A stretch of 64,000 nt of DNA, taken from the NCBI GenBank assembly GCA_963723395.1, contig CAVRQL010000021.1:308206-372205 (forward strand), given 5' to 3'. The notes below the pieces were generated by a model. It was not told where the DNA came from and made no database searches. It saw only the letters and a list, made by a program, of their open reading frames with translations. Source of the DNA: an uncultured Solirubrobacteraceae bacterium (GTDB lineage Bacteria > Actinomycetota > Thermoleophilia > Solirubrobacterales > Solirubrobacteraceae). The position numbers were made by a program, and so were the translations under genes. Positions 28,003-40,005 of this stretch are shown piece by piece. Every line of letters starts with the position of its first letter. Within the stretch, counting starts at the first letter, position 1.

Positions 28003-30090
28003 ATGAAGCAACCGGCGCGTGGGGTTCGTGGGTTCGGCATGGTTCCGGCGATGCTGCGTGCCCTCGCGACGACTCTGCTTGCCCTCGGCGTGCTGGCTGT
28101 CCCGGCCGGCGCCCACCCCGTGAACAACAGCGGCCTGAAGCTGGAGATCGGGAGCGACCGCATCGCGGCGAAGAAGACCTCCAGGGCGAAGGCGATCGCC
28201 GCGCAACAGGCGCCGCCCGCCACGCCGCGCGCCGACTGCGGTCCCGGCGCGAGGCCCGAGGGCGCGATGCAGGGCCGCGTCCCGGCCGGCCACCCGGACG
28301 GCTTCATCTGCAACATGACGCTGGTCGGCCACCAGGGCTCCTCCGGCGGCTACAAGGCGCTGCGCTTCATCGACAAGCAGGGCCACGAGTGCGCGTACTA
28401 CGACACGACGCTGCTGTTCCCGACGAACGCGCAGACGCTCTCGGAGCGGCCCACCGGCACCGCGGTGCTCGACATGAGCGACCCCGCGAACCCGAAGCAG
28501 ACCGCGAGCCTGCCGACGCCCGCGATGCAGTCCCCGCACGAGTCGCTGCTGCTCAACGAGAAGCGCGGCCTGCTCGCCGCGGTGATGGGCAACCCCGCGT
28601 TCGCCCCCGGCTGGGTCGACGTGTACGACCTCAACCAGGACTGCCGCCAGCCCGCGCTGCAGTCCAGCCTCCCCGTCGGCCTGCTCGGCCACGAGTCGGG
28701 CTTCGCGCCCGACGGGAACACGTTCTACGCGACCAGCATCAGCAACGGCACGGTGACCGCCGTCGACCTCACCGACCCCAAGGTGCCGCGCACCCTGACC
28801 GTCGGTCAGTACCCGAGCCACGGGCTGATGATCTCCGACGACGGCAACCGCGCCTACATCGCAGGCCAGGACGGCCTCGTGATCGTCGACGTGTCGGACA
28901 TCCAGCAGCGCCGCGCCAACCCGCAGTTCAAGACGCTCAGCACGCTGACCTGGCCGGAGATGACGATCCCGCAGGTCGCGACCCCGATCACGATCAACGG
29001 CCACCCGTACCTGATGGAGATCGACGAGTTCTCCACCGACGGCGTGACGTTCGTGTCCTCCAACGGCCCGATCGTCGGCGCCGCGCGGATCATCGACATC
29101 GCCGACGAGAAGAACCCGAAGGTCATCTCCAACATCCGCCTGCAGGTCCACCAGCCGGAGAACCGCGCGGCGATCGGCGGCGACCCCGGCGCCCAGAGCC
29201 CGGCGCAGGGCTACGCGGGCCACTACTGCAACGTCCCGCAGCGCCAGGACCCCGGGATCGTGGCCTGCTCGATGATCGTCAGCGGCCTGCGCGTGTTCGA
29301 CATCCGCGACCCGTACAAGCCGAAGGAGATCGCCTACTACGTCGCGCCCAACAAGGCGAGCCAGACCGCGGGGGCGCCCTCGAACTACGCGATGTCGAGC
29401 CCGTCCTTCGCGCCCGAGCGCAAGGAGATCTGGTACACGGACGGCAACAGCGGCTTCTACAACGTCCGCCTCGACAACTGGCCCACGAACAGCCGCCGGC
29501 ACCGCGTCCGGCGACTGCACGGGCGACGGGGGCTTCGCGAGCGTGACCGCCAAGCCACAAGGGCAAGGCCCTGCGCCTGTCCTTCGCCAAGCGCCGCGAC
29601 CTGCCCGTGAAGGTCGAGGTCTTCCAGGTCTCCCAGGGCCGCCGCATCGTCAAGGAGCGCCGCGTCGCGCGCTTCACGAAGCCGCGCACGTTCAAGGCCA
29701 AGGTCGCCGACGGCTACTACTTCGCCCGCTTCACGATGGCCGGCGTCGACCGCCGCCGGATCGTGCTGCGCCGCGCCAACGGCCGCTGGCACACCGCCGC
29801 CCGCCACTACCGCCGCGGGAGCTGCGAGACGCTGCGCACGTACAAGCTCGAGCGCCCCGTGTTCGGCGGCCGCCAGAACACGCCGCTGCGCGTGGCGTAC
29901 CGCGTCACGAAGCCGGCGCGGGTGGCGATCGTGGTGACGCAGGAACGGGCGCACCGTGGCCCGGCGCACGACGAACGCGCAGCCCGGCCGCACCTACCGC
30001 CTCAAGATCAAGGCCAAGCGCCGCGGCGTCTACCGCGTGAAGCTGACCGCGCCCGGCGTGAGCGAGCGGCTCACGGCTCGCCGGCTCTGA
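28003..30090 (+). CDS. Secreted LVIVD-repeat beta-propeller protein with C-terminal extension; at least 3 frameshifts after about 29480
   Basis: Signal peptide. Repeats include DGLVIVDVSD and GNTFYATSISNGTVTAVDL. The C-terminal 200 aa (…KVEVFQVSQGRRIVKERRVARF… and …YRLKIKAKRRGVYRVKLTAPGVSERL*) is spread over three frames. Confidence 0.65.
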
Positions 30091-31324
30091 GCCGCTCGAT
30101 GACGGCGGCGTTGTGCCGGTGCCCGCGCGCCTCGTAGCCGATCACCGACACCCACGGGCTCGCGCTCAGCGCGACCAGGCACCACGCCATCGACGCGCCC
30201 GCCGAGGCCATCACCAGCGGGACGACGAGCAGCACGGCCGTGCCCGCCAGCAGCCAGAGGTGGAACGGGTCGAGCGTCCGGGTCAGGAACGCGTAGAGGA
30301 TGAAGACGCCGAACAGGAACACGGCGACCGGCACCACCACGGTCAGCACGGTCGCGGCGGCGCTCAGCTCGGAGTGGTCCTCCAGGTAGTACGCGGCGGC
30401 GTGCAGCCCGCCGCCGGTGGCCACCACGGCGCCGATCAGCGGGATGTGCCCGTAGCCCCACTTGAACGACCGCTCCCGCCGCACGTCCAGCACCTCGCCG
30501 GAGGGCACGATGAAGTAGATCCACCACATGCCGAAGGTCAGCGCCGTGCCGGCCACCGCGACGGCGACCGCGTCCACCGACCACCCGGGCCCCTCCGGGC
30601 CGACGACCGCGGACAGCGCCACCACGGTGCCGAGCACGCCCTCGCCGAGCGCGATGATCACCAGCAGCCCGTAGCGCTCGGCGATGTGGTGCGGGTGCCA
30701 CGGGGTGCCGCCCTTGCGATTCTCCGCGATCCACGGGCCGGCGAACTCGACCATCACGAGCAGCAGCACGCAGACGAACGTGACGGCCACCGACGTCTCG
30801 GCGACCAGCAGCGCGACCCAGCCGGCCTGCGCGATCAGGATCGCGGTGACGTAGGTCGAGCAGGCTGACCGCCGGTCCGGGTCCTGCCGCGCGGCGCGCG
30901 CCCACTGGAAGACCATCGCGACCCGCATCACGACGTAGCCGGCCACCATCACCCGGTTGTCGACGGTGTCGCCCTCGTCGATCGACTTGAACATCACCGG
31001 CAGGCCCAGGGCGAGGATGAGCACGCCGACCATCTGCACCATCGTGGTGAGCCGGTAGATCCAGTCGTCGGTGTCGTAGGCCGACGCGAACCACGAGAAG
31101 TTCACCCACGCCCACGTGATCGCGAAGGTGCCGAGCGCGAAGCCGAGCAGCGCCGTGGAGATGTGGTCCTCGGCGAGATAGTGGGCGAGCTCGTTCGCCG
31201 CGAGGCCGTATCCGGCGACGAACGTGAGGTCGAACAGCAGCTCCAGCGGCGTCGCGGCGCGATGCGACTCCGAGGGGTCGCGGCCGCCCATGCGCGCTCG
31301 CCGGTGGTGGAGCGCCGTGCTCAC
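30071..31324 (-). CDS. Low-temperature-requirement protein A (LtrA) family membrane protein
   Basis: ELLFDLTFVAGY..., multiple TM helices and ...WWIYFIVPSGE... are typical LtrA blocks. Intact 417 aa. Confidence 0.8.
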   Translation of the reverse strand: MSTALHHRRARMGGRDPSESHRAATPLELLFDLTFVAGYGLAANELAHYLAEDHISTALLGFALGTFAITWAWVNFSWFASAYDTDDWIYRLTTMVQMVGVLILALGLPVMFKSIDEGDTVDNRVMVAGYVVMRVAMVFQWARAARQDPDRRSACSTYVTAILIAQAGWVALLVAETSVAVTFVCVLLLVMVEFAGPWIAENRKGGTPWHPHHIAERYGLLVIIALGEGVLGTVVALSAVVGPEGPGWSVDAVAVAVAGTALTFGMWWIYFIVPSGEVLDVRRERSFKWGYGHIPLIGAVVATGGGLHAAAYYLEDHSELSAAATVLTVVVPVAVFLFGVFILYAFLTRTLDPFHLWLLAGTAVLLVVPLVMASAGASMAWCLVALSASPWVSVIGYEARGHRHNAAVIERLRAGEP

Positions 31325-31403
31325 CGCTCGGATCGTACTTCAGGTCAATCCGACCATAATTCTGGTAGGGTTCTGGTCAAGACGACCAGAACAGGAGCAC
31401 GAG

Positions 31404-32343
31404 ATGGCCGACATCACCCACTTCCCGCTCGTCAGGCACCTGCGCTCGGAGCCGACCTTCCACGTCCTGCGCTACCGCAAGGGCGAGCTCAAGCGCGACG
31501 GCGCCGGCCTCGCGTTCTGGTTCCGGCCCGCCAACACGGCGGTCGCCGAGGTCCCGGTCGACGACCGCGAGCTGCCGTTCCTGTTCCGCGTCCGCTCCGC
31601 CGACTTCCAGGAGCTGACGGTGCAGGGCGTGATCACGTTCCGCGTCGGCGATCCGCAGAGCCTCGCCCGCCGCGTGGACTTCACGCTCGACCTCAAGTCC
31701 GGCCGCTGGGCGCAGGCCCCGCTGGAGCAGGTCGCCGGCCTGCTCTCCCAGCTGGCCCAGCAGTTCGTGGTCGACGAGCTGGTCAAGCTCGACGTGCGCA
31801 CGATCCTGCACGGCGGCGTCGCGCCGATCCGCGACCGGATCGCGCAGGGCCTCGCGCAGGAGCCCGCGCTTCACGAGCTCGGCATCGCGCTCGTGGCGGT
31901 CCGCGTCGCCGACCTCGCGCCGACCGCCGAGCTGGAGAAGGCGCTGCGCCAGCCGACCCGCGAGGCGATCCAGCAGCGCGCCGACGAGGCCACCTTCAGC
32001 CGCCGCGCGATGGCGGTCGACAAGGAGCGCGCCATCGGGGAGAACGAGCTCGCCAACCGCATCGAGCTGACCCGTCGCGAGGAGGAGCTCGTGACCCGCA
32101 GCGCCGCCAACGACCGGCTGCGGGCGCAGGCGCGCGCCGACGAGATCGACGTCGTGGAGTCGGCCAAGCTGCGCACCGAGCGCGAGCGGGCCGAGATCCA
32201 GTCGGCGGTGCCGCCCCAGGTGCTGCTCGCCGTCGCGCTCCAGGAGCTGGCCGGCCAGCTCGGGCAGATCGACCACCTGACGATCACGCCCGACCTGCTG
32301 CAGCCGCTGCTCAGCCGCGCCAACGGGAAGGGCGCGATGAGGT
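31404..32343 (+). CDS. SPFH / band-7 domain protein
   Basis: ATG with ACAGGAGCA SD. An SPFH-like N-terminal domain and a coiled-coil region (…EKALRQPTREAIQQRADEATFSRRAMAVDKERAIGENELANRIEL…). The C-terminal boundary is uncertain because the next gene begins in another frame with no clear stop. Confidence 0.6.
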
Positions 32344-33198
32344 GGTCCCCCGCGCCGTCCTCGTGGAGCGGCCGAGCGAGTACGACGAGCTGCTCGCCCG
32401 CCACGCCACCCACGACCAGGTCCGGTTCTTCCTCGAGCGCCGCGAGCGGTCGCTCGAGGAGGTGCTGGAGCGCCACGCCGCCCACGGGCGCGACCACCGC
32501 ACGGTCCTCGGCGCCGTCCCGCCCGAGTGGCGGACGGCGACCGTGGCGCGCGCGGAGCTGGACCGCTTCCTGTTCGAGCCCGACGACGTCGTGCTGACCC
32601 TCGGCCAGGACGGGCTCGTCGCCAACGTCTCCAAGTACCTCGACGGCCAGCCGGTGATCGGCGTCAACCCGGGCGGCGTGGTCGCCCGGCACGCGGCCGC
32701 CGCGGTGGGCGACCTGATCGCCGACCTCGCCCGCGGGCGCGCGCGAATCGAGGAGCGCACGATGGCCGAGGCGCGGCTCGACGACGGCCAGGTGGTGACC
32801 GCGCTCAACGAGGTCTTCGTCGGCCACGAGTCGCACCAGTCGGCGCGCTACACGATCGAGGTCGCCGGCTGCGCGGAGCACCAGTCCAGCTCGGGGCTGA
32901 TCGTGAGCACCGGCACCGGCGCGACCGGCTGGGCGGCGAGCATCAACCGCACCTACGGGCTCGAGCTCCCCGCGCCCACCGATCCGCGGCTCGCGTTCTT
33001 CGTCCGCGAGGCGTGGCCGAGCGCCGCCACCCGCACCTCGATCACGAGCGGCGTGATCGAGGCGCGTCGCGAGTCACGTGCGAGCTGGGGGAGGGCGGCG
33101 TCGTGTTCGGCGACGGCATCGAGGCCGACCGCGTGAGCGTCGACTGGGGCCAGCGGATCGAGGTCGGCGCCTCGGCGAGGCGCCTGCGTCTGGTCGCA
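32341..33198 (+). CDS. ATP-NAD kinase (NadK/PpnK-like) family protein; frameshift near 33070
   Basis: VVLTLGQDGLV...PVIGVNPGGV matches the GGDGT...GxNxG region of NadK. SSGLIVSTGTGATGWAASINR matches the NadK C-terminal DGxxxSTPTGSTAYSxSAGGP block. Confidence 0.6.
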
Positions 33199-33208
33199 AT
33201 GACCGCAT

Positions 33209-34627
33209 GTGCGCTACGTCCTGTTCCCGGGTCGCCACCACCTGCTGACCCGCTTCCAGGCGGAGTACCTCGAGCACGTGGCCGACGGCGCGAAGATCGT
33301 GTTCGCGGTCACCAGCGCCGACCACGGCAACACGCGGCGCAACCCGGTCCCCGGGCACCGGCGCGAGGCGCAGATCGAGCGCCTCGCCGCCCAGACCGGA
33401 CTCGACTGCCTGGTGTTCCCGATCCCCGACGTGCCCGCCACGGAGCGCTTCGCGGAGTACATGCTGGCCGCGATCGCCGCGCAGGACGGCGGCCCGGAGC
33501 TGACGCCGGAGAACACCGTCCTCGCCTGCTCGACGCCCGCGGTGATCGAGCTGTTCGCCGAGCTCGGCTTCGAGAACCTGCCGGTGGAGCTCGAGACCGG
33601 CGTGCGGCGCCCGTGGGACGTCCTGCAGGCGCTCGTCGCCGGGGAGCCCGCCGAGGACGTGCACCCGGCCTCCAAGCAGGTCTACGACCGCTACGGGCTG
33701 CTCTCCCAGATCCGCCGCGTGCACGCCGACCCGCTGCTCTCCGACGAGGGCGAGCTGACCGAGACGCGCGACTACAACACCTACGCGCGCGCCTTCGACA
33801 CCGGCGCCGCGCGCAAGTGGGAGCAGCTGCGCGACCACGTCCGGCCCGGCCGGATCGTCGACGTCGGCTGCGGCGTCGGCTCGCTGCTGGTCGAGATCGC
33901 CGCCGACCCTGGCTTCGCCGAGTCCGACCTGTACGGGATCGAGGCCGCCCGGCCGCTGCACGACGAGTGCGTGCACCGCCGCTCCCAGGGGGCCTTCCAA
34001 GCGAACCCGAACACGTTCTTCTTCCAGCGCACGATCGGCCAGGGGCCGCTGTTCGAGCCGGCGAGCGTCGACACGACGCTGACCGTGGCGCTGTGCCACG
34101 AGCTGTACTCCTACCTCGGCGTCGACACGCTGCGGCGCTTCATGCGCGACACGCGCGAGCACACCGTGCCCGGCGGCGTGTGGATCGACCTCGACGTGTG
34201 CGGTCCCGCCGACGGCGACCGCGTGGTCTGGATGGAGCTGCACGACGGCCGCGAGAGCTGGGAGCGCTTCGTCGCCGACTGGCGCCCGGAGCGGGTCGAA
34301 TACGAACTCCGCGACGGCCGCTTCGTGGAGACGCGGCTGCGCTGGGCGATGGAGTGGCTGTCCAAGAAGGACTACACGGACAACTGGGAGTCCGAGATGC
34401 ACGAGGCGTTCTGCTTCTGGGGCGCCGAGGACTACGAGCGCGAGGCGCGCGCGGCCGGCTTCGAGCTCGCCCCCGGCTCCGGCGGCTTCACCAACGAGTG
34501 GCTCGTCGAGCACCGCTTCGCCCCCGTGGCGACGCTGCGCCCGGCCGGGGAGCCCGACGGTGTGCTGCCGTGGCCCGACACGCACCTGCGGCTGGTGGCC
34601 CGGCGGCCTGTCACCCTTCCTTCATGA
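33209..34627 (+). CDS. NadM-like (archaeal-type NMN adenylyltransferase fold) nucleotidyltransferase fused to class I SAM-dependent methyltransferase
   Basis: N-terminal IVFAVTSADHGNTRRNPVPGHRRE...LVFPIPDV parallels NadM [23 protein letters not shown]...YPIPI, while the HxGH-region is divergent (FPGRHHLLTRFQ). C-terminal half has MTase motif I IVDVGCGVGSLLVEIA. Confidence 0.55.
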   Translation: MRYVLFPGRHHLLTRFQAEYLEHVADGAKIVFAVTSADHGNTRRNPVPGHRREAQIERLAAQTGLDCLVFPIPDVPATERFAEYMLAAIAAQDGGPELTPENTVLACSTPAVIELFAELGFENLPVELETGVRRPWDVLQALVAGEPAEDVHPASKQVYDRYGLLSQIRRVHADPLLSDEGELTETRDYNTYARAFDTGAARKWEQLRDHVRPGRIVDVGCGVGSLLVEIAADPGFAESDLYGIEAARPLHDECVHRRSQGAFQANPNTFFFQRTIGQGPLFEPASVDTTLTVALCHELYSYLGVDTLRRFMRDTREHTVPGGVWIDLDVCGPADGDRVVWMELHDGRESWERFVADWRPERVEYELRDGRFVETRLRWAMEWLSKKDYTDNWESEMHEAFCFWGAEDYEREARAAGFELAPGSGGFTNEWLVEHRFAPVATLRPAGEPDGVLPWPDTHLRLVARRPVTLPS

Positions 34628-35072
34628 GCTTCCAGCCGGCGCCGATGCGGGCGTCCGATGCGGATCGCGAGCGGGCGGCGGACCTGCTGCGCGAGCACCT
34701 CATGGCGGGCAGGCTGGACAGCACGGAGTTCGACGAGCGCTGCTCGGAGGTGTGGGCGGCGCGCACGGACCAGGAGCTCTCCCTCGCGCTGCGCGAGCTC
34801 CCGGCGCCGCCCGCTGCCGCCGGCGCCCGACACGTCGGCGGCGACGACCTCGCTGATCCTCGGCCTGGTCGGCCTCACGCTGATCGTCTTCAGCGTCGGG
34901 TTCCTGTCGCTGCTCACGCTGCCGATCTCGGCCACCGCGCTGGTGATGGGACGCAGGGCGCACCGGCGAGGGCTCGGCCCGGCCGGCCAAGGCCGGGATG
35001 TGGCTGGGCGTGACGGGCACCGCGCTCAGCGTGCTCGCCCTCAGCGGGTTGGCTGCCCTGTTCTACCTCTAG
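34624..35072 (+). CDS. DUF1707 (N-terminal) plus DUF4190-like TM hairpin protein; two frameshifts (about 34810 and about 34980)
   Basis: SDADRERAADLLREHLMAGRLDSTEFDERCSEVWAARTDQEL is DUF1707. LILGLVGLTLIVFSVGFLSLLTLPISATALVMG follows in the +1 frame, and GMWLGVTGTALSVLALSGLAALFYL* in the next frame. Confidence 0.5.
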
Positions 35073-35083
35073 AGTTGGCGCGG

Positions 35084-36467
35084 ATGGCCACCACCGAGCG
35101 CCAATCCGACATCAAGGACTCGATCCTCGACACCGTCGGGGACACGCCGCTGATCCGCCTCTCGCGGATCGCGCGCGGGGCTGAAGCCGCAGGTCGTGGC
35201 GAAGGTCGAGTACTTCAACCCCGGCGGCTCGATCAAGGACCGCGTCGCGATGCGCCTCGTCGAGGCCGCGGAGCGCGACGGGCGCCTGAAGCCCGGCGGG
35301 ACGATCATCGAGCCGACCTCGGGCAACACCGGCACCGGCCTGGCGATCGCGGCGCGCATCAAGGGCTACCGCGTGATCGCGGTGATGCCGGACAAGATGT
35401 CGCGCGAGAAGATCGACCTGCTGCGCGCCTACGGCGCCGAGGTCGTGGTGACGCCGACCGACGTCGACCCCGACTCGCCGCAGAGCTACTACCGGACGGC
35501 CGACCGCCTCACGCGCGAGATCCCCGGGGCCTTCCAGCCCAACCAGTACGCGAACCCCGCCAACCCGGAGACGCACTACCTCACCACCGGGCCGGAGCTG
35601 TGGAGCCAGAGCGGCGGCAAGGTCACGCACCTGGTCGTCGGCGTCGGCACCGGCGGGACGATCACCGGGATGGCCCGCTACCTGCGCGAGCAGAACCCGA
35701 AGATCGAGGTGATCGGCGCCGATCCCGTCGGCTCGATCTACTCCAACGACGAGGTCCACCCGTACCTCGTCGAGGGCGTGGGCGAGGACTTCTGGCCGAA
35801 GACCTACGACCCGTCGGTGGTCGACCGCTACGTGACGATCTCCGACCGCGACGCGTTCCTGACCACCCGTCGGCTGGCCGAGACCGAGGGGCTGCTCGTC
35901 GGCGGCTCCTGCGGGCTCGCGGTGGCCGCGGCGCTGGAGGTCGCGCGCGGGATCGACGACCCCGAGGCGATGGTCGCGGTCGTGCTCCCCGACGGCGGGC
36001 GCGGCTACCTGAGCAAGATCTTCAACGACGACTGGATGGACCAGTACGGGTTCCTCGAGCGCACGGGCGAGCGCCACGTCGGCGACGTGCTGCGCGCGAA
36101 GACGGCGGCCGGCGAGATCCCGCCGTTCGTGGTCGTCGAGACGCACCAGACGGTCCGCGACGCGATCACGCTGCTGCACGAGCACCGCGTCTCGCAGCTG
36201 CCGGTGGTCGACGGCTCGGGCTCGGTGGTCGGCTCGGTCGGCGAGCGCGGGCTGCTCAAGCGCGCGATCGACAACCCGCACCTGATGGGCACCGCGATCG
36301 CCGACGTGATGGAGGCGCCGTTCCCCAGCGTGGGCAACACGGATCCCGTGCGCGAGGCGGTCGAGCTGCTCTCGGGCGAGGGCAGCCAGGCGGTGACGGT
36401 GTCCGAGGGCGAGCGCCCGGTCGGCATCGTGACCCGCGCCGACCTCCTGGAGTCGCTGATCTCGTGA
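35084..36467 (+). CDS. Cystathionine beta-synthase (PLP domain plus tandem CBS domains); single-base insertion in GGGG run near 35178
   Basis: MATTERQSDIKDSILDTVGDTPLIRLSRIARG lies one frame away from KPQVVAKVEYFNPGGSIKDRVA...TSGNTGTGLA...; C-terminal CBS pair (…VRDAITLLHEHRVSQLPVVD…, …VGIVTRADLLESLIS). Confidence 0.8.
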
Positions 36468-37540
36468 CGCGCTTCGGCACCCGCGTGGTGCACGCCGGGC
36501 TCGACCCCGATCCTTCGTTCGGGGGCGTCGTGCCCGCCATCCACCAGGCCTCCACCTACGTGCAGAAGGCGCCGGGCGACTTCGTCGGCGACTACGACTA
36601 CTCGCGCTCGGCCAACCCGACGCGGACGCAGCTCGAGAAGGCGCTCGGCGAGCTGGAGGGCGGCCGCGGCACGGCGTTCTCCTCCGGCATGGCCGCCACG
36701 CACGCGCTGCTCACCGCGGTGGCGAGCGCGGGCTCGCACGTGATCATCCCCAGCGACCTGTACGGCGGCACCTTCCGCCTGGTCGACAAGGTGCTCTCGC
36801 ACTGGGGGCTGGAGTACACGATGGTCGACCAGTCCGACCTCGACGCCGTCGAGGCCGCCGTGCGGCCCGAGACGAAGCTGATCTGGGTCGAGACGCCGAC
36901 CAACCCGTCGCTGAACGTGGTCGACGTGGAGGGGATCGTCGCCCGCAAGCGCGACGCGTTCGTCGCCGTCGACAACACCTTCGCCACGCCGGTCTACCAG
37001 CGCCCGCTGGAGCTCGGGGCCGACGCCGTCGTGCACTCGACGACCAAGTACCTGGGCGGGCACTCCGACACGGTCGGCGGCGCGGTCGTGGTGCGCGACA
37101 ACCGCGCGCACGAGAGCGTCAAGTTCGTCCAGAACTCGGTCGGCGCCGTGCCGGGGCCCTTCGACTGCTTCCTCGTGCACCGCGGGCTGCGCACGCTGCA
37201 CCTGCGGATGGCCGCGCACACGGAGAACGCCCGCGCGGTCAGCGAGTGGCTGGCCGGCGTGCCCGAGGTCAGCGACGTCCGCTGGCCGGGCTTCGCGGGC
37301 ATGGTGGCCTTCCGCCATCCCGAGGCGGTCCGGATCGTCGGCGCGACCAAGGTGTTCGCGCTCGCCGAGTCGCTCGGCGGCGTCGAGTCGCTGGTCGAGG
37401 TGCCGCAGGCGATGACGCACCAGTCGGTCGAGGACTCCGACGCCGCGGTCCCCGCCGATCTCGTGCGGCTGTCGTGCGGGATCGAGGAGGCGGCCGACCT
37501 GGTCGAGGACCTCGCCCAGGCGATGGCGTCAAGCCGCCGC
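36464..37540 (+). CDS. Cystathionine gamma-lyase/gamma-synthase family PLP enzyme (MetB/MetC/Cgl)
   Basis: GTGA overlap with the CBS stop. VHAGLDPDP...AIHQASTYVQ...HSTTKYLGGHSDTVGGAVVV carries the PLP-lysine block. The stop is unclear (probably a frameshift near 37520; a TAA appears in the +1 frame at about 37538). Confidence 0.8.
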
Positions 37541-37566
37541 GTAACCCGCCGATCCCTCGGGGAGAT

Positions 37567-38185
37567 GTTCCGTCTCCCGCTGCTCGCGTTCGCCCTTGCC
37601 CTGATCGCCGCCGTGCCCGCCGGCGCGATGGTCAAGCTCCCGCCCGTCCTCCCCGCCGTCGCCCACAACCCGGCCGACCGGATGCTCGGCGTCCCGATCG
37701 AGGACTCGGTCTACGACCCGGCCACCAAGTGCACGCCGAAGGCGCCCCGCCCGGGCGTCGCCGCCATGACGCGCTGGCTGCAGGCCAACACCCGCGGCGT
37801 GTTCTGGGGTTCGTACCGGTGCGAGAAGTGGGGCAAGCACGAGGCCTCGCTGCACGCCGAGAACCGCGCCATCGACTGGCACTTGGACGTCTTCGACCGC
37901 GCCGACAAGCGCGCCGCCGAGAAGCTGATCCGGCTGCTGCTCGCGCCCGACGCGGCCGGCAACCCGCAGGCGCTCGCGCGCCGCATGGGCGTCGAGGAGC
38001 TGATCTGGGACTGCGGGTACTGGGGCGCCGGGATGACCGGGTTCAACCCGTACAGCCCTTGTTACAAGCGCGGCAAGCTGCGCAAGAAGGTCAACCCGAC
38101 GATCGGGCACCGCGACCACATCCACATCGGCCTGACCAAGGACGCGGCCAGGGCCCGGACCTCCTTCTGGAGCAGGCACCGGTGA
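37567..38185 (+). CDS. Secreted peptidase M15-like (VanY-fold) protein, paralogue of 11165..12022
   Basis: Signal peptide MFRLPLLAFALALIAAVPAGA. M15 motifs SLHAENRAIDWHLD and HRDHIHIG. Confidence 0.55.
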
Positions 38186-38205
38186 TCTCGGGGCATACTC
38201 GCTGG

Positions 38206-38937
38206 ATGCGCCGCAGCGTGATCCTCGTCTGCATCCTGGGCGCCGTCGCCCTCGGCGCCGGCGTGCTCGCGATCGCGGCGGCCGGCGACGACAAGCCCTC
38301 TCCCAAGGCCGTGAGCCCTTCGGCCGGCGAGTCCAAGCTCCCGCCGCTGCCCTCCAAGCTGCGCCCGCGCGTGGTGCAGCCCGAGGCCGGCGCCGCCGGC
38401 GCGGAGGAGGAGTCCGAGTCCGTCGAGGACTCCGGGCTCGGCGAGGATCCCGGCCCGGCCCCGAAGCGCGCCGCCAGCACCGGCGGGCGCAGGCTCGACG
38501 GCGTCCTCAAGGGCGCCGGCGGGGGCGTGAACAAGGCGACCGCGCTCTCCAACGGCGTCGCGCTTCCGCCCTTCGAGGCGCCCGAGGCGGTCCGCCAGAT
38601 CATCGAGGCCGGCAACTCGATCGCCCGCACGCCGTACAAGTGGGGCGGCGGCCACGGCAAGTGGCAGGACACCGGCTACGACTGCTCCGGCTCGGTCTCC
38701 TTCGCGCTCGCCGCCGCCGGGCTGCTCGAGGGTCCGCTGGCCTCCGGGCCGCTGATGTCCTGGGGCGAGGCGGGGCCCGGCAAGTGGGTCACGATCTACT
38801 CCAACCCCGGGCACGTCTACCTCGTCGTGGCGGGCATCCGCTTCGACACCTCCGGAGCCCGCCAGACGGGCTCCCGCTGGCAGAACGAGCTGCGCACCAA
38901 CGAGGGCTTCGTCGCCCGGCATCCGACCGGGCTGTAA
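38206..38937 (+). CDS. Secreted NlpC/P60 family cell-wall peptidase, paralogue of 60237..61010
   Basis: Signal/TM anchor. Catalytic block TPYKWGGGHGKWQDTGYDCSGSVSFAL and ...NPGHVYLVVAGIRFD supplies the Cys-His-His triad context. Confidence 0.75.
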   Translation: MRRSVILVCILGAVALGAGVLAIAAAGDDKPSPKAVSPSAGESKLPPLPSKLRPRVVQPEAGAAGAEEESESVEDSGLGEDPGPAPKRAASTGGRRLDGVLKGAGGGVNKATALSNGVALPPFEAPEAVRQIIEAGNSIARTPYKWGGGHGKWQDTGYDCSGSVSFALAAAGLLEGPLASGPLMSWGEAGPGKWVTIYSNPGHVYLVVAGIRFDTSGARQTGSRWQNELRTNEGFVARHPTGL

Positions 38938-39033
38938 GCCTCGCTTGGGGTGACGACCCCATGGGTCGGCCCGCGCGGGGCGCCGATGAAGGGAATAGCA
39001 AGAGAGTTCCTTCCTGAATCGACCAGCTTCCTG

Positions 39034-39291
39034 ATGTCCCGCTCCCCGCTCTTCACGCACGATCTACCTGCCGGCCCGCCGCCTGAGGTGCTGGACGAGA
39101 TCGGCGCAGCGTGGGAGCGGGCTCAGGCGCTCGTCGACTTCGACCTGCACTTCGAGATCGACGCGGCGCGGCCGCGACGTGCCTTCGGAGAGCTGCGCCG
39201 CTCGGACGGAACGCTGGAGCGCAGGCTCACGGCCACAGAGGCGCTCGCGATCGCGTGTGGCGACCCCGTGGAGCCGCTGCTCCTCGTGTAG
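39034..39291 (+). CDS. Hypothetical protein
   Basis: Coding-like ORF MSRSPLFTHDLPAGPPPEVLDEIGAAWERAQ... with no recognisable family. Confidence 0.3.
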   Translation: MSRSPLFTHDLPAGPPPEVLDEIGAAWERAQALVDFDLHFEIDAARPRRAFGELRRSDGTLERRLTATEALAIACGDPVEPLLLV

Positions 39292-39320
39292 CTCAGCCGC
39301 CACGTGGTAAACCCAACCAC

Positions 39321-40005
39321 ATGGCTCTTAAACCGAAAGACATCCTCGACACCGTCACGGGTGTTGGAAAAACCGCCGTCAACGAGGTCACGAAGCGCTT
39401 CCGGCGCGACGAGTCCGACACCGAGCTGACCGCTCCCGCCGCGACCCCGGCCACGCCGGCCCCGGCCGCGCGGACGCGGCCGTCCAAGCCGCGCGCGGCT
39501 CGTGCGGGCGGGACGAAGACCGGCCGCTCGACGTCGGGCACCACCAAGACGTCCCGCACGCGTGCCGCGTCGACGGGCACCGCCAAGGCGAAGCCCGCCG
39601 GCCGCGCCGCCGCGCCGAAGGCCGGTGACGCGGGCGCCCCGAAGTCGGCGACCGCCAAGCCGAAGCCCGCCAAGAGCGCGGCGAAGAAGCCGGCTGCTGC
39701 GAAGAAGCCCGCGGCGGCCAAGCCCACGCCGGCGAAGCCCAAGCCGCCCGAGACGGCGAGCGCCTCCACCACCGCGGCGAGCGCGTCGAAGACGCCGTCC
39801 GCGGCCAAGCCGAAGCCCGCTCGCCGCGGCGAAGCCCGCTGCGGCGGCGAAGCCCGCGCCCGCGAAGCCGGCCGCCGCGAAGCCCGCGGCAGCCCCGCCG
39901 GCGCCCGCGAAGCCCTCGCCTGCCAAGCCCGCGGCGGCCGAGAAGCCGACGGCCGAGAAGGCCGACGACGCGGCGAAGACCCCCGCGGCGACGACCAAGA
40001 GCTAG
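39321..40005 (+). CDS. Lys/Ala/Pro-rich (PAKA-repeat) histone-like low-complexity protein; frameshift near 39830
   Basis: N-terminus MALKPKDILDTVTGVGKTAVNEV, then about 190 aa of AKPAAAKKPAAAKPTPAKPKP-type repeats resembling HU/H1-like C-terminal tails of actinobacteria. Confidence 0.55.

Follow-up and report, generated by a model that had tools for sequence, protein, structure and literature searches.

We analysed a stretch of 64,000 nucleotides (64 kb; hereafter the window) from an uncultured Solirubrobacteraceae bacterium, in which positions 31404-34627 hold three co-directional, abutting genes. They encode an SPFH/Band-7 protein, a member of the NAD (nicotinamide adenine dinucleotide) kinase family, and a fusion of a NadM-like domain to an S-adenosylmethionine (SAM)-dependent methyltransferase. 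The window has a G+C content of ~72%, and its closest public relatives are metagenome-assembled genomes (MAGs) of uncultured Solirubrobacteraceae, designated L001, L006 and L007. The fusion protein of L006 is 79% identical to that of the window, while L007 shares 90.6% nucleotide identity over 28191-39982. An initial annotation, made from the sequence alone, had described the three genes and quoted their motifs; we found both the genes and the motifs in place, but the gene models of the first two are damaged by indels, as detailed below. For genomic context we used a sample of 85 loci encoding the fusion protein, together with separately fetched loci of the kinase. The central features are as follows:

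31339..31359: NrtR-type operator box 1, TTCAGGTCAATCCGACCATAA, with 1 mismatch to the consensus and a position weight matrix (PWM) score of 27.4 bits
31371..31391: NrtR-type operator box 2, TTCTGGTCAAGACGACCAGAA, a perfect palindrome with 0 mismatches, a GT-N7-AC core and a score of 29.2 bits
31404..32340, plus strand: nrtX-like SPFH/Band-7 gene, ~311 codons by homology, ATG start, assigned by Pfam Band_7
32342..33202, plus strand: nrtY-like NAD-kinase-family gene (NADK2-like), GTG start, assigned by family profile and fold
33209..33742, plus strand: fusion gene, NadM-fold domain (about residues 1-175)
33773..34627, plus strand: fusion gene, class I SAM methyltransferase domain (about residues 189-472)

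The first two genes appear to correspond to a pair that was predicted to belong to NrtR regulons and listed in Table 1 of Rodionov et al. (2008, NAR 36:2047, PMC2330246) as 'nrtR<#>nrtX-nrtY', function unknown, in Proteus mirabilis, Hahella chejuensis, Streptomyces, Kineococcus and Frankia. At the Proteus mirabilis locus we found an NrtR gene divergent from an SPFH gene (338 aa) that is followed by a NadK-like gene (315 aa). Since this arrangement matches the published listing, we refer to the SPFH protein as NrtX and to the kinase as NrtY. The loci share with the listed ones the same order of nrtR, operator and two-gene operon, as well as the GT-N7-AC palindromes. The published pair was found in some Actinobacteria and Gammaproteobacteria, to which the fetched loci add Rhizobium and Treponema. 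Unlike the nrtR<>nrtX arrangement, the regulator gene is not adjacent in the window, a situation that the same paper lists for Streptomyces. The window also differs in appending the NadM-like::methyltransferase gene, and perhaps a DUF1707 gene, and in that both nrtX and nrtY carry frame lesions. We found no paper after 2008 that mentions nrtX or nrtY, and none that links an SPFH protein with a NAD kinase or NadM with a methyltransferase. For a pair that has been listed as 'function unknown' since 2008, we propose the identities of a soluble SPFH protein and an NADK2-like kinase.

To define the operator, we derived a consensus from aligned intergenic regions between nrtR and the SPFH gene. It is a 21-bp palindrome, TT(A/C)T(C/G)GTC-N5-GAC(C/G)A(T/G)AA, which as a rule occurs twice, the copies lying 25-34 bp from each other; its core, GT-N7-AC, is the common NrtR core (PMC2330246). 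Both boxes of the window lie in the 79-bp spacer that separates the SPFH gene from a divergently oriented LtrA gene (30071-31324, minus strand; Pfam LtrA, E=1e-90), 13-65 nt ahead of the SPFH start. The right half of box 1 holds a -10-like CATAAT, and in L087 and L088 the box is placed between TTGACA and CATAAT. Box 2 is 32 bp from box 1, lies just 5′ of the ribosome-binding site AGGAG (31393-31397) and ends 13 nt before the start codon. These two sites were the only matches in the 64 kb, even when 3 mismatches were allowed, with 0.01 matches expected at ≤1 mismatch. A PWM built from 12 sites gave 23 matches of at least 18 bits in 1.34 Mb of fetched loci, and all 23 were located just upstream of the nrtX start, inside the intergenic region or at its edge, with sites from outside the training set (L002, L052, L087-L090 and Proteus) among them. 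Tandem boxes 25-34 bp apart were present upstream of nrtX in L002, L052, L035, L087-L090 and L093. Operators preceded every sampled SPFH/kinase pair from Actinobacteria to Rhizobium and Proteus, so that the nrtX operator is conserved from Thermoleophilia to Proteus. The link to NAD metabolism that the initial annotation had drawn is borne out by features that it had not noted, namely the two NrtR-type operators upstream of the SPFH gene and the divergent NrtR genes of related loci. We also observed that the sole sigma-70-like promoter match in 31000-35400 (TTGACC-16-TATGGT, 31353-31380, minus strand) points towards the divergent ltrA and overlaps both boxes, so NrtR might also control ltrA.

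At the kinase loci, the SPFH and kinase genes always form a tight pair, with an overlap or a gap of at most 5 nt. A divergent NrtR-like gene (NUDIX + WHD_NrtR) occurs in most of the sampled kinase loci and is adjacent in 7 related loci; it was identified in Mycobacterium sp. djl-10, M. wolinskyi, the 'Chloroflexi' MAG, soil MAGs, Rhizobium etli p42f and Proteus mirabilis. The nrtXY pair lacks a downstream fusion gene in soil MAGs L086-L090, Rhizobium etli p42f, Kitasatospora and Proteus mirabilis. The SPFH-kinase pair is a widespread two-gene cassette that usually occurs without the fusion gene.

Seen from the fusion side, the SPFH and kinase genes lie directly upstream in 7 of the 85 loci, namely the window, L001, L006 and L007 in Solirubrobacteraceae, the mycobacterial loci L002 (Mycobacterium sp. 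djl-10) and L052 (Mycolicibacterium wolinskyi), and L035, a MAG labelled Chloroflexi. The distance between nrtXY and the fusion gene in these loci is 6-35 nt, and it is 6 nt in the window. Neither an SPFH nor a kinase gene was found near the fusion gene at the remaining 78 loci (Micromonosporaceae, Kribbella, Klenkia, other mycobacteria and others). Moreover, clustering of the flanking open reading frames (ORFs) of all 85 loci gave genus-level synteny only and no conserved neighbour. As assigned by Pfam, the abutting neighbours in 10 genera were heterogeneous and included an alpha/beta hydrolase, an amino-acid permease, Dus, a solute-binding protein, a phosphoesterase and GH2. NeuB and GT2 glycosyltransferase genes precede the fusion gene on the same strand in Kribbella (L027 4369-8488, Kribbella sp. 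ALI-6-A, and 8-10 other loci). The trio that had been proposed as a possible unit is not a conserved one, as the pair usually lacks the fusion gene and the fusion gene mostly stands alone; a three-enzyme pathway would be lineage-specific at best. As a separate observation, a gene for a 5099-aa protein lies directly downstream of, and convergent with, the mycobacterial trio of Mycobacterium sp. djl-10 (L002 9515-17506; CP016640). The protein carries WXG100-like, NUDIX and Scabin-like (ADP-ribosyltransferase toxin) domains, and a NAD-consuming polymorphic toxin thus adjoins an NrtR-controlled operon.

We examined which NAD kinases NrtY most resembles. The NCBIfam NadK equivalog models scored the window kinase at 10-40 bits against cut-offs of 211-630, with E-values of only ~1e-9; the best of them reached 37.8 bits against a cut-off of 260, and PF01513 gave 19 bits against 25.5. 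Intact NrtY homologues had no Pfam match at E<0.01. A canonical housekeeping NadK was rejected on these scores, in agreement with the initial annotation, which had judged the arrangement non-canonical. No second NadK was found in the 64-kb window. NrtY itself belongs to a highly conserved family of ~290-aa proteins, with at least 7887 members at E≤0.001 among 8000 scored candidates. The best match of the family profile was human mitochondrial NADK2 (7r4j) at E=3.3e-16, whereas canonical bacterial and archaeal NadKs gave 1e-7 to 1e-3; in bits, NADK2 scored 62 and any bacterial NadK 34 or less. The structure was modelled on the intact homologue P0121 of L006 instead of the window copy (predicted local distance difference test, pLDDT, 91; predicted template modelling score, pTM, 0.85). 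In a Foldseek search of the PDB, all top 50 matches of this model were NAD kinases, with E-values down to 5e-18, indicating the two-domain NAD kinase fold, and the highest TM-scores (0.73-0.75) were to NADK2.

The motifs of NrtY agree with these matches. The family carries GQDG (G88, D90 and G91 invariant), ALNE (N159 and E160 invariant) and SSG....TGTGATGW, and the window copy carries GQDG, ALNE and SSGLIVSTGTGATGW. Among solved and characterised relatives (NADK2/C5orf33, PDB 7r4j and 7n29; plant NADK3), NADK2 was the best profile and structural match. NrtY and NADK2 have in common an N-terminal strand and helical insertion with an ERH motif, PV(I/L)G(V/L)N..P, the NE motif, and SSG....TGTG(S/A)..W with the C5orf33 Ser and Trp, positions that distinguish C5orf33 from classical NadKs (Ohashi et al., PMC3535332). 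The two differ in that NrtY has GQDG where NADK2 has GGDG, and in that NrtY has an invariant C-terminal FGDGIE.D...WGQ motif. In addition, NrtY comprises ~290 aa against 390 aa in the crystallised NADK2 chain, which, from length only, suggests that the metazoan dimerisation insert (PMC9245612) is lacking. It further differs from NADK2 in its bacterial origin, its SPFH partner and its predicted control by NrtR. By profile and modelled fold, NrtY is an NADK2-type enzyme within the NAD-kinase family, has intact catalytic motifs and is not a housekeeping NadK, and its most likely substrate for phosphorylation is NAD(H) or an ADP-ribosyl nucleotide close to it. For the mito-clade NADK of eukaryotes, the origin has been called 'unknown' (PMC6675116), and the NrtY family may be relevant to it. 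We also noted that plasmids of 5-15 kb (Psychrobacter NC_021158.1, Actinobacillus NZ_MZ436971.1 and Pasteurella NZ_CP152404.1) match the C-terminal half of NrtY only (about residues 157-292), which may represent a truncated or stand-alone C-domain homologue.

NrtX is a member of the SPFH family, scoring 55.7 bits with Pfam Band_7 (PF01145), whose gathering score is 23.6 (E=8.5e-15, residues 21-196), and the window copy is 46% identical to a mycobacterial homologue. A long coiled-coil tail follows the SPFH domain. An N-terminal membrane anchor is typical of stomatin, HflK/C and prohibitin-type members of the family. No such anchor was found in five NrtX homologues, whose Kyte-Doolittle maximum over 19 residues was 1.2-1.6 and fell within the SPFH domain; the maximum of the window NrtX was 1.43. 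Stomatin-NfeD and HflK/C-FtsH are examples of SPFH scaffolds whose client is encoded in their own operon. Similarly, the nrtX gene is located directly upstream of, and translationally coupled to, the gene of its partner enzyme. Unlike those systems, NrtX has no detected transmembrane anchor and the partner is a kinase, not a protease. By analogy, NrtX would most likely be a soluble oligomeric scaffold for NrtY.

The fusion protein gave an AlphaFold model with pLDDT 89 and pTM 0.72, in which two domains are joined by a low-confidence linker (residues 180-186). The N-terminal domain takes the Rossmann-like nucleotidyltransferase fold of NadM, as the initial annotation had expected of this half of the protein. 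By both sequence profile and structure, its closest solved relative is an NMN (nicotinamide mononucleotide) adenylyltransferase, the profile finding 1f9a (M. jannaschii MJ0541) at E=9e-4. Like MJ0541, the domain keeps a G-R after strand 1 and the loop (G/T)SA..(S)H.T..NP....(E)R. In the window this loop is TSADHGNTRRNPVPGHRRE, and GSAQxSHTxxNPFTxxER of the family aligns with TSADHxNTRRNPxxxHRRE. In contrast, HxGH at the start of helix A is replaced by T14-R-F-Q17, SxTxxR gives way to RPW (R-P-W-D-V-L opposite SGTEIR of MJ0541), and the domain is always fused to a methyltransferase. The degenerate HxGH noted earlier is thus a family trait, with the T and Q conserved. Across 35 close and 12 distant members, R9, Q17, P46, R52 and P135 were invariant and G8 and T14 nearly so, and neither histidine of HxGH was present in any of the 47 aligned proteins. 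The N-domain scored 13.5 bits with the NCBIfam NadM model PRK01153, below its cut-off of 127.

In NMN adenylyltransferases (NMNATs), HxGH and SxTxxR bind and activate ATP. Because both motifs are replaced, adenylyltransferase activity of the fusion protein is doubtful; a functional NMN adenylyltransferase found no support, as the replacement is family-wide, and the synthesis of an adenylylated nucleotide that had been suggested for the trio is not favoured. The signalling molecule that had been considered as its product gained no support from the analysis. The NadM-like domain is more likely to be a pyridine- or adenine-nucleotide-binding module than an adenylyltransferase, to judge from its motifs. 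The second domain has the Rossmann-like fold of class I SAM methyltransferases, with conserved motif I VDVGCGVG (D218, G220, C221 and G224), the acidic residue E245 after strand 2, H297-E298 and a C-terminal lid region, DY.DNW.SE..E.FC. Since these motifs are conserved, it is probably active. Its best structural matches were generic and included phosphoethanolamine N-methyltransferases. Taken together, Pfam, the family profile and the structure models agree with the domain assignments made initially, namely SPFH, NadK-like, NadM-like fold and SAM methyltransferase.

The fusion protein is an independent and mainly actinobacterial family of fixed architecture. It comprises >1,000 protein clusters and >555 genome loci. 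In an exhaustive search of 1.84 billion representatives, the N-domain was found in 186 proteins at E≤0.001, nearly all of them carrying it at the N-terminus of 460-560 aa; other architectures were essentially absent from this search, and the shorter matches look like fragments. This result indicates that the architecture is fixed and that the variant NadM domain hardly occurs outside this fusion. In public databases these proteins are annotated as 'class I SAM-dependent methyltransferase' only, and the family therefore carries an unrecognised NadM-fold domain with replaced catalytic motifs. A role in defence was also considered. In PADLOC, NrtX and NrtY matched no defence model and the fusion protein gave only a generic methyltransferase match (mad2, 6e-7), and a defence system was rejected.

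Based on these observations, we favour, with moderate confidence, the reading that the region is an NrtR-regulon operon made up of the nrtX-nrtY cassette and a lineage-specifically attached NadM-like::methyltransferase gene. NrtR is a Nudix-related regulator that ADP-ribose releases from DNA (PMC2330246). From the folds, motifs, operators and gene linkage described above, we infer the following scheme. NrtR, presumably encoded outside the window, would bind the two tandem operators, which overlap the first gene's promoter and 5′ leader. When ADP-ribose, as a by-product of NAD consumption, accumulates, NrtR would leave the DNA and the operon would be expressed. NrtX would form an oligomeric scaffold holding NrtY, and NrtY would phosphorylate NAD(H) or a closely similar molecule. 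Attachment of the fusion gene 6-35 nt downstream of nrtXY, as seen in Solirubrobacteraceae and some mycobacteria, would have placed it under NrtR control, and the rewired NMNAT fold of its product would keep a pyridine or adenine nucleotide bound during the methyltransferase reaction. The fusion protein encoded beside nrtXY would most likely methylate a NAD-related small molecule, as its domains suggest. This substrate is the weakest point of the scheme, because the solo distribution of the fusion gene and its Kribbella context allow a non-NAD substrate. That the gene is wired into the NAD regulon in a few lineages is nevertheless a testable lead to what the enzyme acts on. A bolder version would have nrtXY and the fusion gene constitute an unrecognised pyridine-nucleotide branch induced by ADP-ribose, in which an SPFH-scaffolded NADK2-type kinase acts on NAD(H), an ADP-ribosyl nucleotide or a nucleotide of the nicotinic acid adenine dinucleotide (NaAD) type and the rewired NMNAT-fold methyltransferase makes an undescribed methylated NAD-related metabolite. 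We consider this version quite improbable; as a corollary, if it were true, no bacterial family would stand closer to eukaryotic mitochondrial NADK2 than NrtY.

Several observations weigh against the operon reading. NrtY falls far below all curated NadK thresholds, and its substrate could differ from NAD. The linkage between the fusion gene and nrtXY holds in 7 of the 85 loci and is absent from the nrtY-sampled loci outside those lineages, and the PWM found no NrtR box upstream of the solo fusion genes in 78 loci. The NeuB gene of Kribbella (nonulosonic acid synthase-like) and its GT2 neighbour point to glycan metabolism and away from NAD. No NrtR gene was found in the 64-kb window, binding at the boxes is predicted from their sequence, and the equation of nrtX and nrtY with the SPFH and NadK-like genes is drawn from the Proteus locus. 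Finally, the frame-disrupting indels in nrtX and nrtY mean that the cassette may be non-functional in this organism.

Some of these points bear on two other explanations of the trio. The three proteins might form one pathway, in which adenylylation, phosphorylation and methylation yield an unusual NAD-derived cofactor or signal. The three genes lie close together and are likely to be co-transcribed, the order SPFH, kinase and fusion recurs in two actinobacterial classes, with the mycobacterial loci under a divergent NrtR, and all three catalytic-type domains are well conserved. However, the linkage is absent for the fusion gene at 78 of 85 loci and for nrtXY in Rhizobium, Proteus, Kitasatospora and soil MAGs; HxGH and SxTxxR are replaced throughout the family, and fusion proteins from trio loci resemble one another no more than they resemble solo ones (~49-52% identity in both comparisons). 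A single pathway thus seems to us very unlikely. At the other extreme, the adjacency could be meaningless, the fusion protein being a small-molecule or glycan methyltransferase whose N-domain is a relic of a nucleotidyl- or cytidylyl-transferase and whose gene landed by nrtXY by chance. The heterogeneous neighbours across genera, the Kribbella gene abutting NeuB and the GT2 glycosyltransferase, the generic structural matches of the methyltransferase, phosphoethanolamine N-methyltransferases among them, and the solo copies without an NrtR box would all fit such a history. What argues against it is that the nearest solved relative of the N-domain is specifically an NMN adenylyltransferase, with the NadM-specific loop retained, and that two different classes show the gene attached to the NAD-regulon operon across gaps of 6-35 nt. 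We regard chance adjacency as unlikely and retain the NrtR-regulon operon with an attached fusion gene.

We further studied the state of nrtX and nrtY in the window, where the frames were compared by a four-way DNA alignment of the window, L006, L001 and L007. Only the window has an additional A at 32337, which shifts the SPFH stop codon (TGA, 32338-32340) out of the reading frame, so that the SPFH ORF continues to 32597 and overlaps the kinase gene by ~256 nt. The kinase frame starting at 32342 holds the N-terminal ~243 codons and breaks after ~33069, where a 7-nt deletion relative to L006 and L001 is common to the window and L007; this frame ends early at the stop codon 33134-33136. Because of the deletion, the invariant C-terminus of the kinase lies in a different frame. 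Its 42 conserved codons, ending in RLRLV, occupy the -1 frame at ~33070-33195, and an extra G at 33196 returns the terminal TGA (33200-33202) to the first frame. Consistent with this, the hidden Markov model of the kinase family matched the window in two frames, at profile positions 1-250 and 253-294. The fusion gene (33209-34627) is intact. There were no other window-unique frameshifting indels in the SPFH body, the fusion gene or a 2.4-kb region encoding cystathionine beta-synthase and a putative cystathionine gamma-lyase (CBS/CGL). Over the same two aligned blocks (~5.6 kb), L007 had ~26 and L001 ~14 unique frame-shifting indels. Those of L007 break most genes, which makes L007 and L001 unreliable for gene models and still useful as DNA outgroups.

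The lesions reflect either assembly error or gene decay, as the alignment and the divergence profile are compatible with either. If nrtX-nrtY were a decaying pseudogene pair in this genome, the fusion gene alone would be functional. Three frame-disrupting indels within ~900 nt (the A at 32337, the 7-nt deletion at ~33069 and the G at 33196), set beside a fusion gene and a CBS/CGL region without window-unique frameshifts, are what decay would produce, and the 7-nt deletion is also present in L007, an independent MAG. On the other hand, the displaced C-terminal 125 nt are identical in the window and L007, against ~4% divergence elsewhere in the operon, and they still encode every invariant residue, suggesting ongoing selection. 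Moreover, the related long-read MAGs L007 and L001 are full of indels and the adjoining DUF1707 gene also appears frameshifted, which makes a local assembly error plausible. Decay of the pair is a real possibility, though not the outcome we would expect. With its nrtX and nrtY copies frame-disrupted and the chemistry inferred, the window itself is of limited value.

The operon region is followed by one further small gene:

34624..35013, plus strand: DUF1707 (SHOCT-like) gene, Pfam DUF1707 E=5.5e-19

Its ATG overlaps the stop codon of the fusion gene (ATGA), and no terminator-like site was found in 31000-35400; the gene is probably co-transcribed with the fusion gene. The synteny between the two was not kept in L001 or L006. 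The sequence of the DUF1707 gene (34624-35013; ORF starting at 34658) appears off-frame beyond about residue 60, and a convincing transmembrane hairpin, SLILGLVGLTLIVFSVGFLSLLTLPISATALVMG, is encoded in another frame, suggesting a further indel near 34800. Downstream of DUF1707, the segment 35196-37600 holds an intact cystathionine beta-synthase gene (PALP and two CBS domains), followed by an ORF that, read by eye, we take to be cystathionine gamma-lyase-like. The two would be an ordinary transsulfuration pair, and they are syntenic with L006, L001 and L007.

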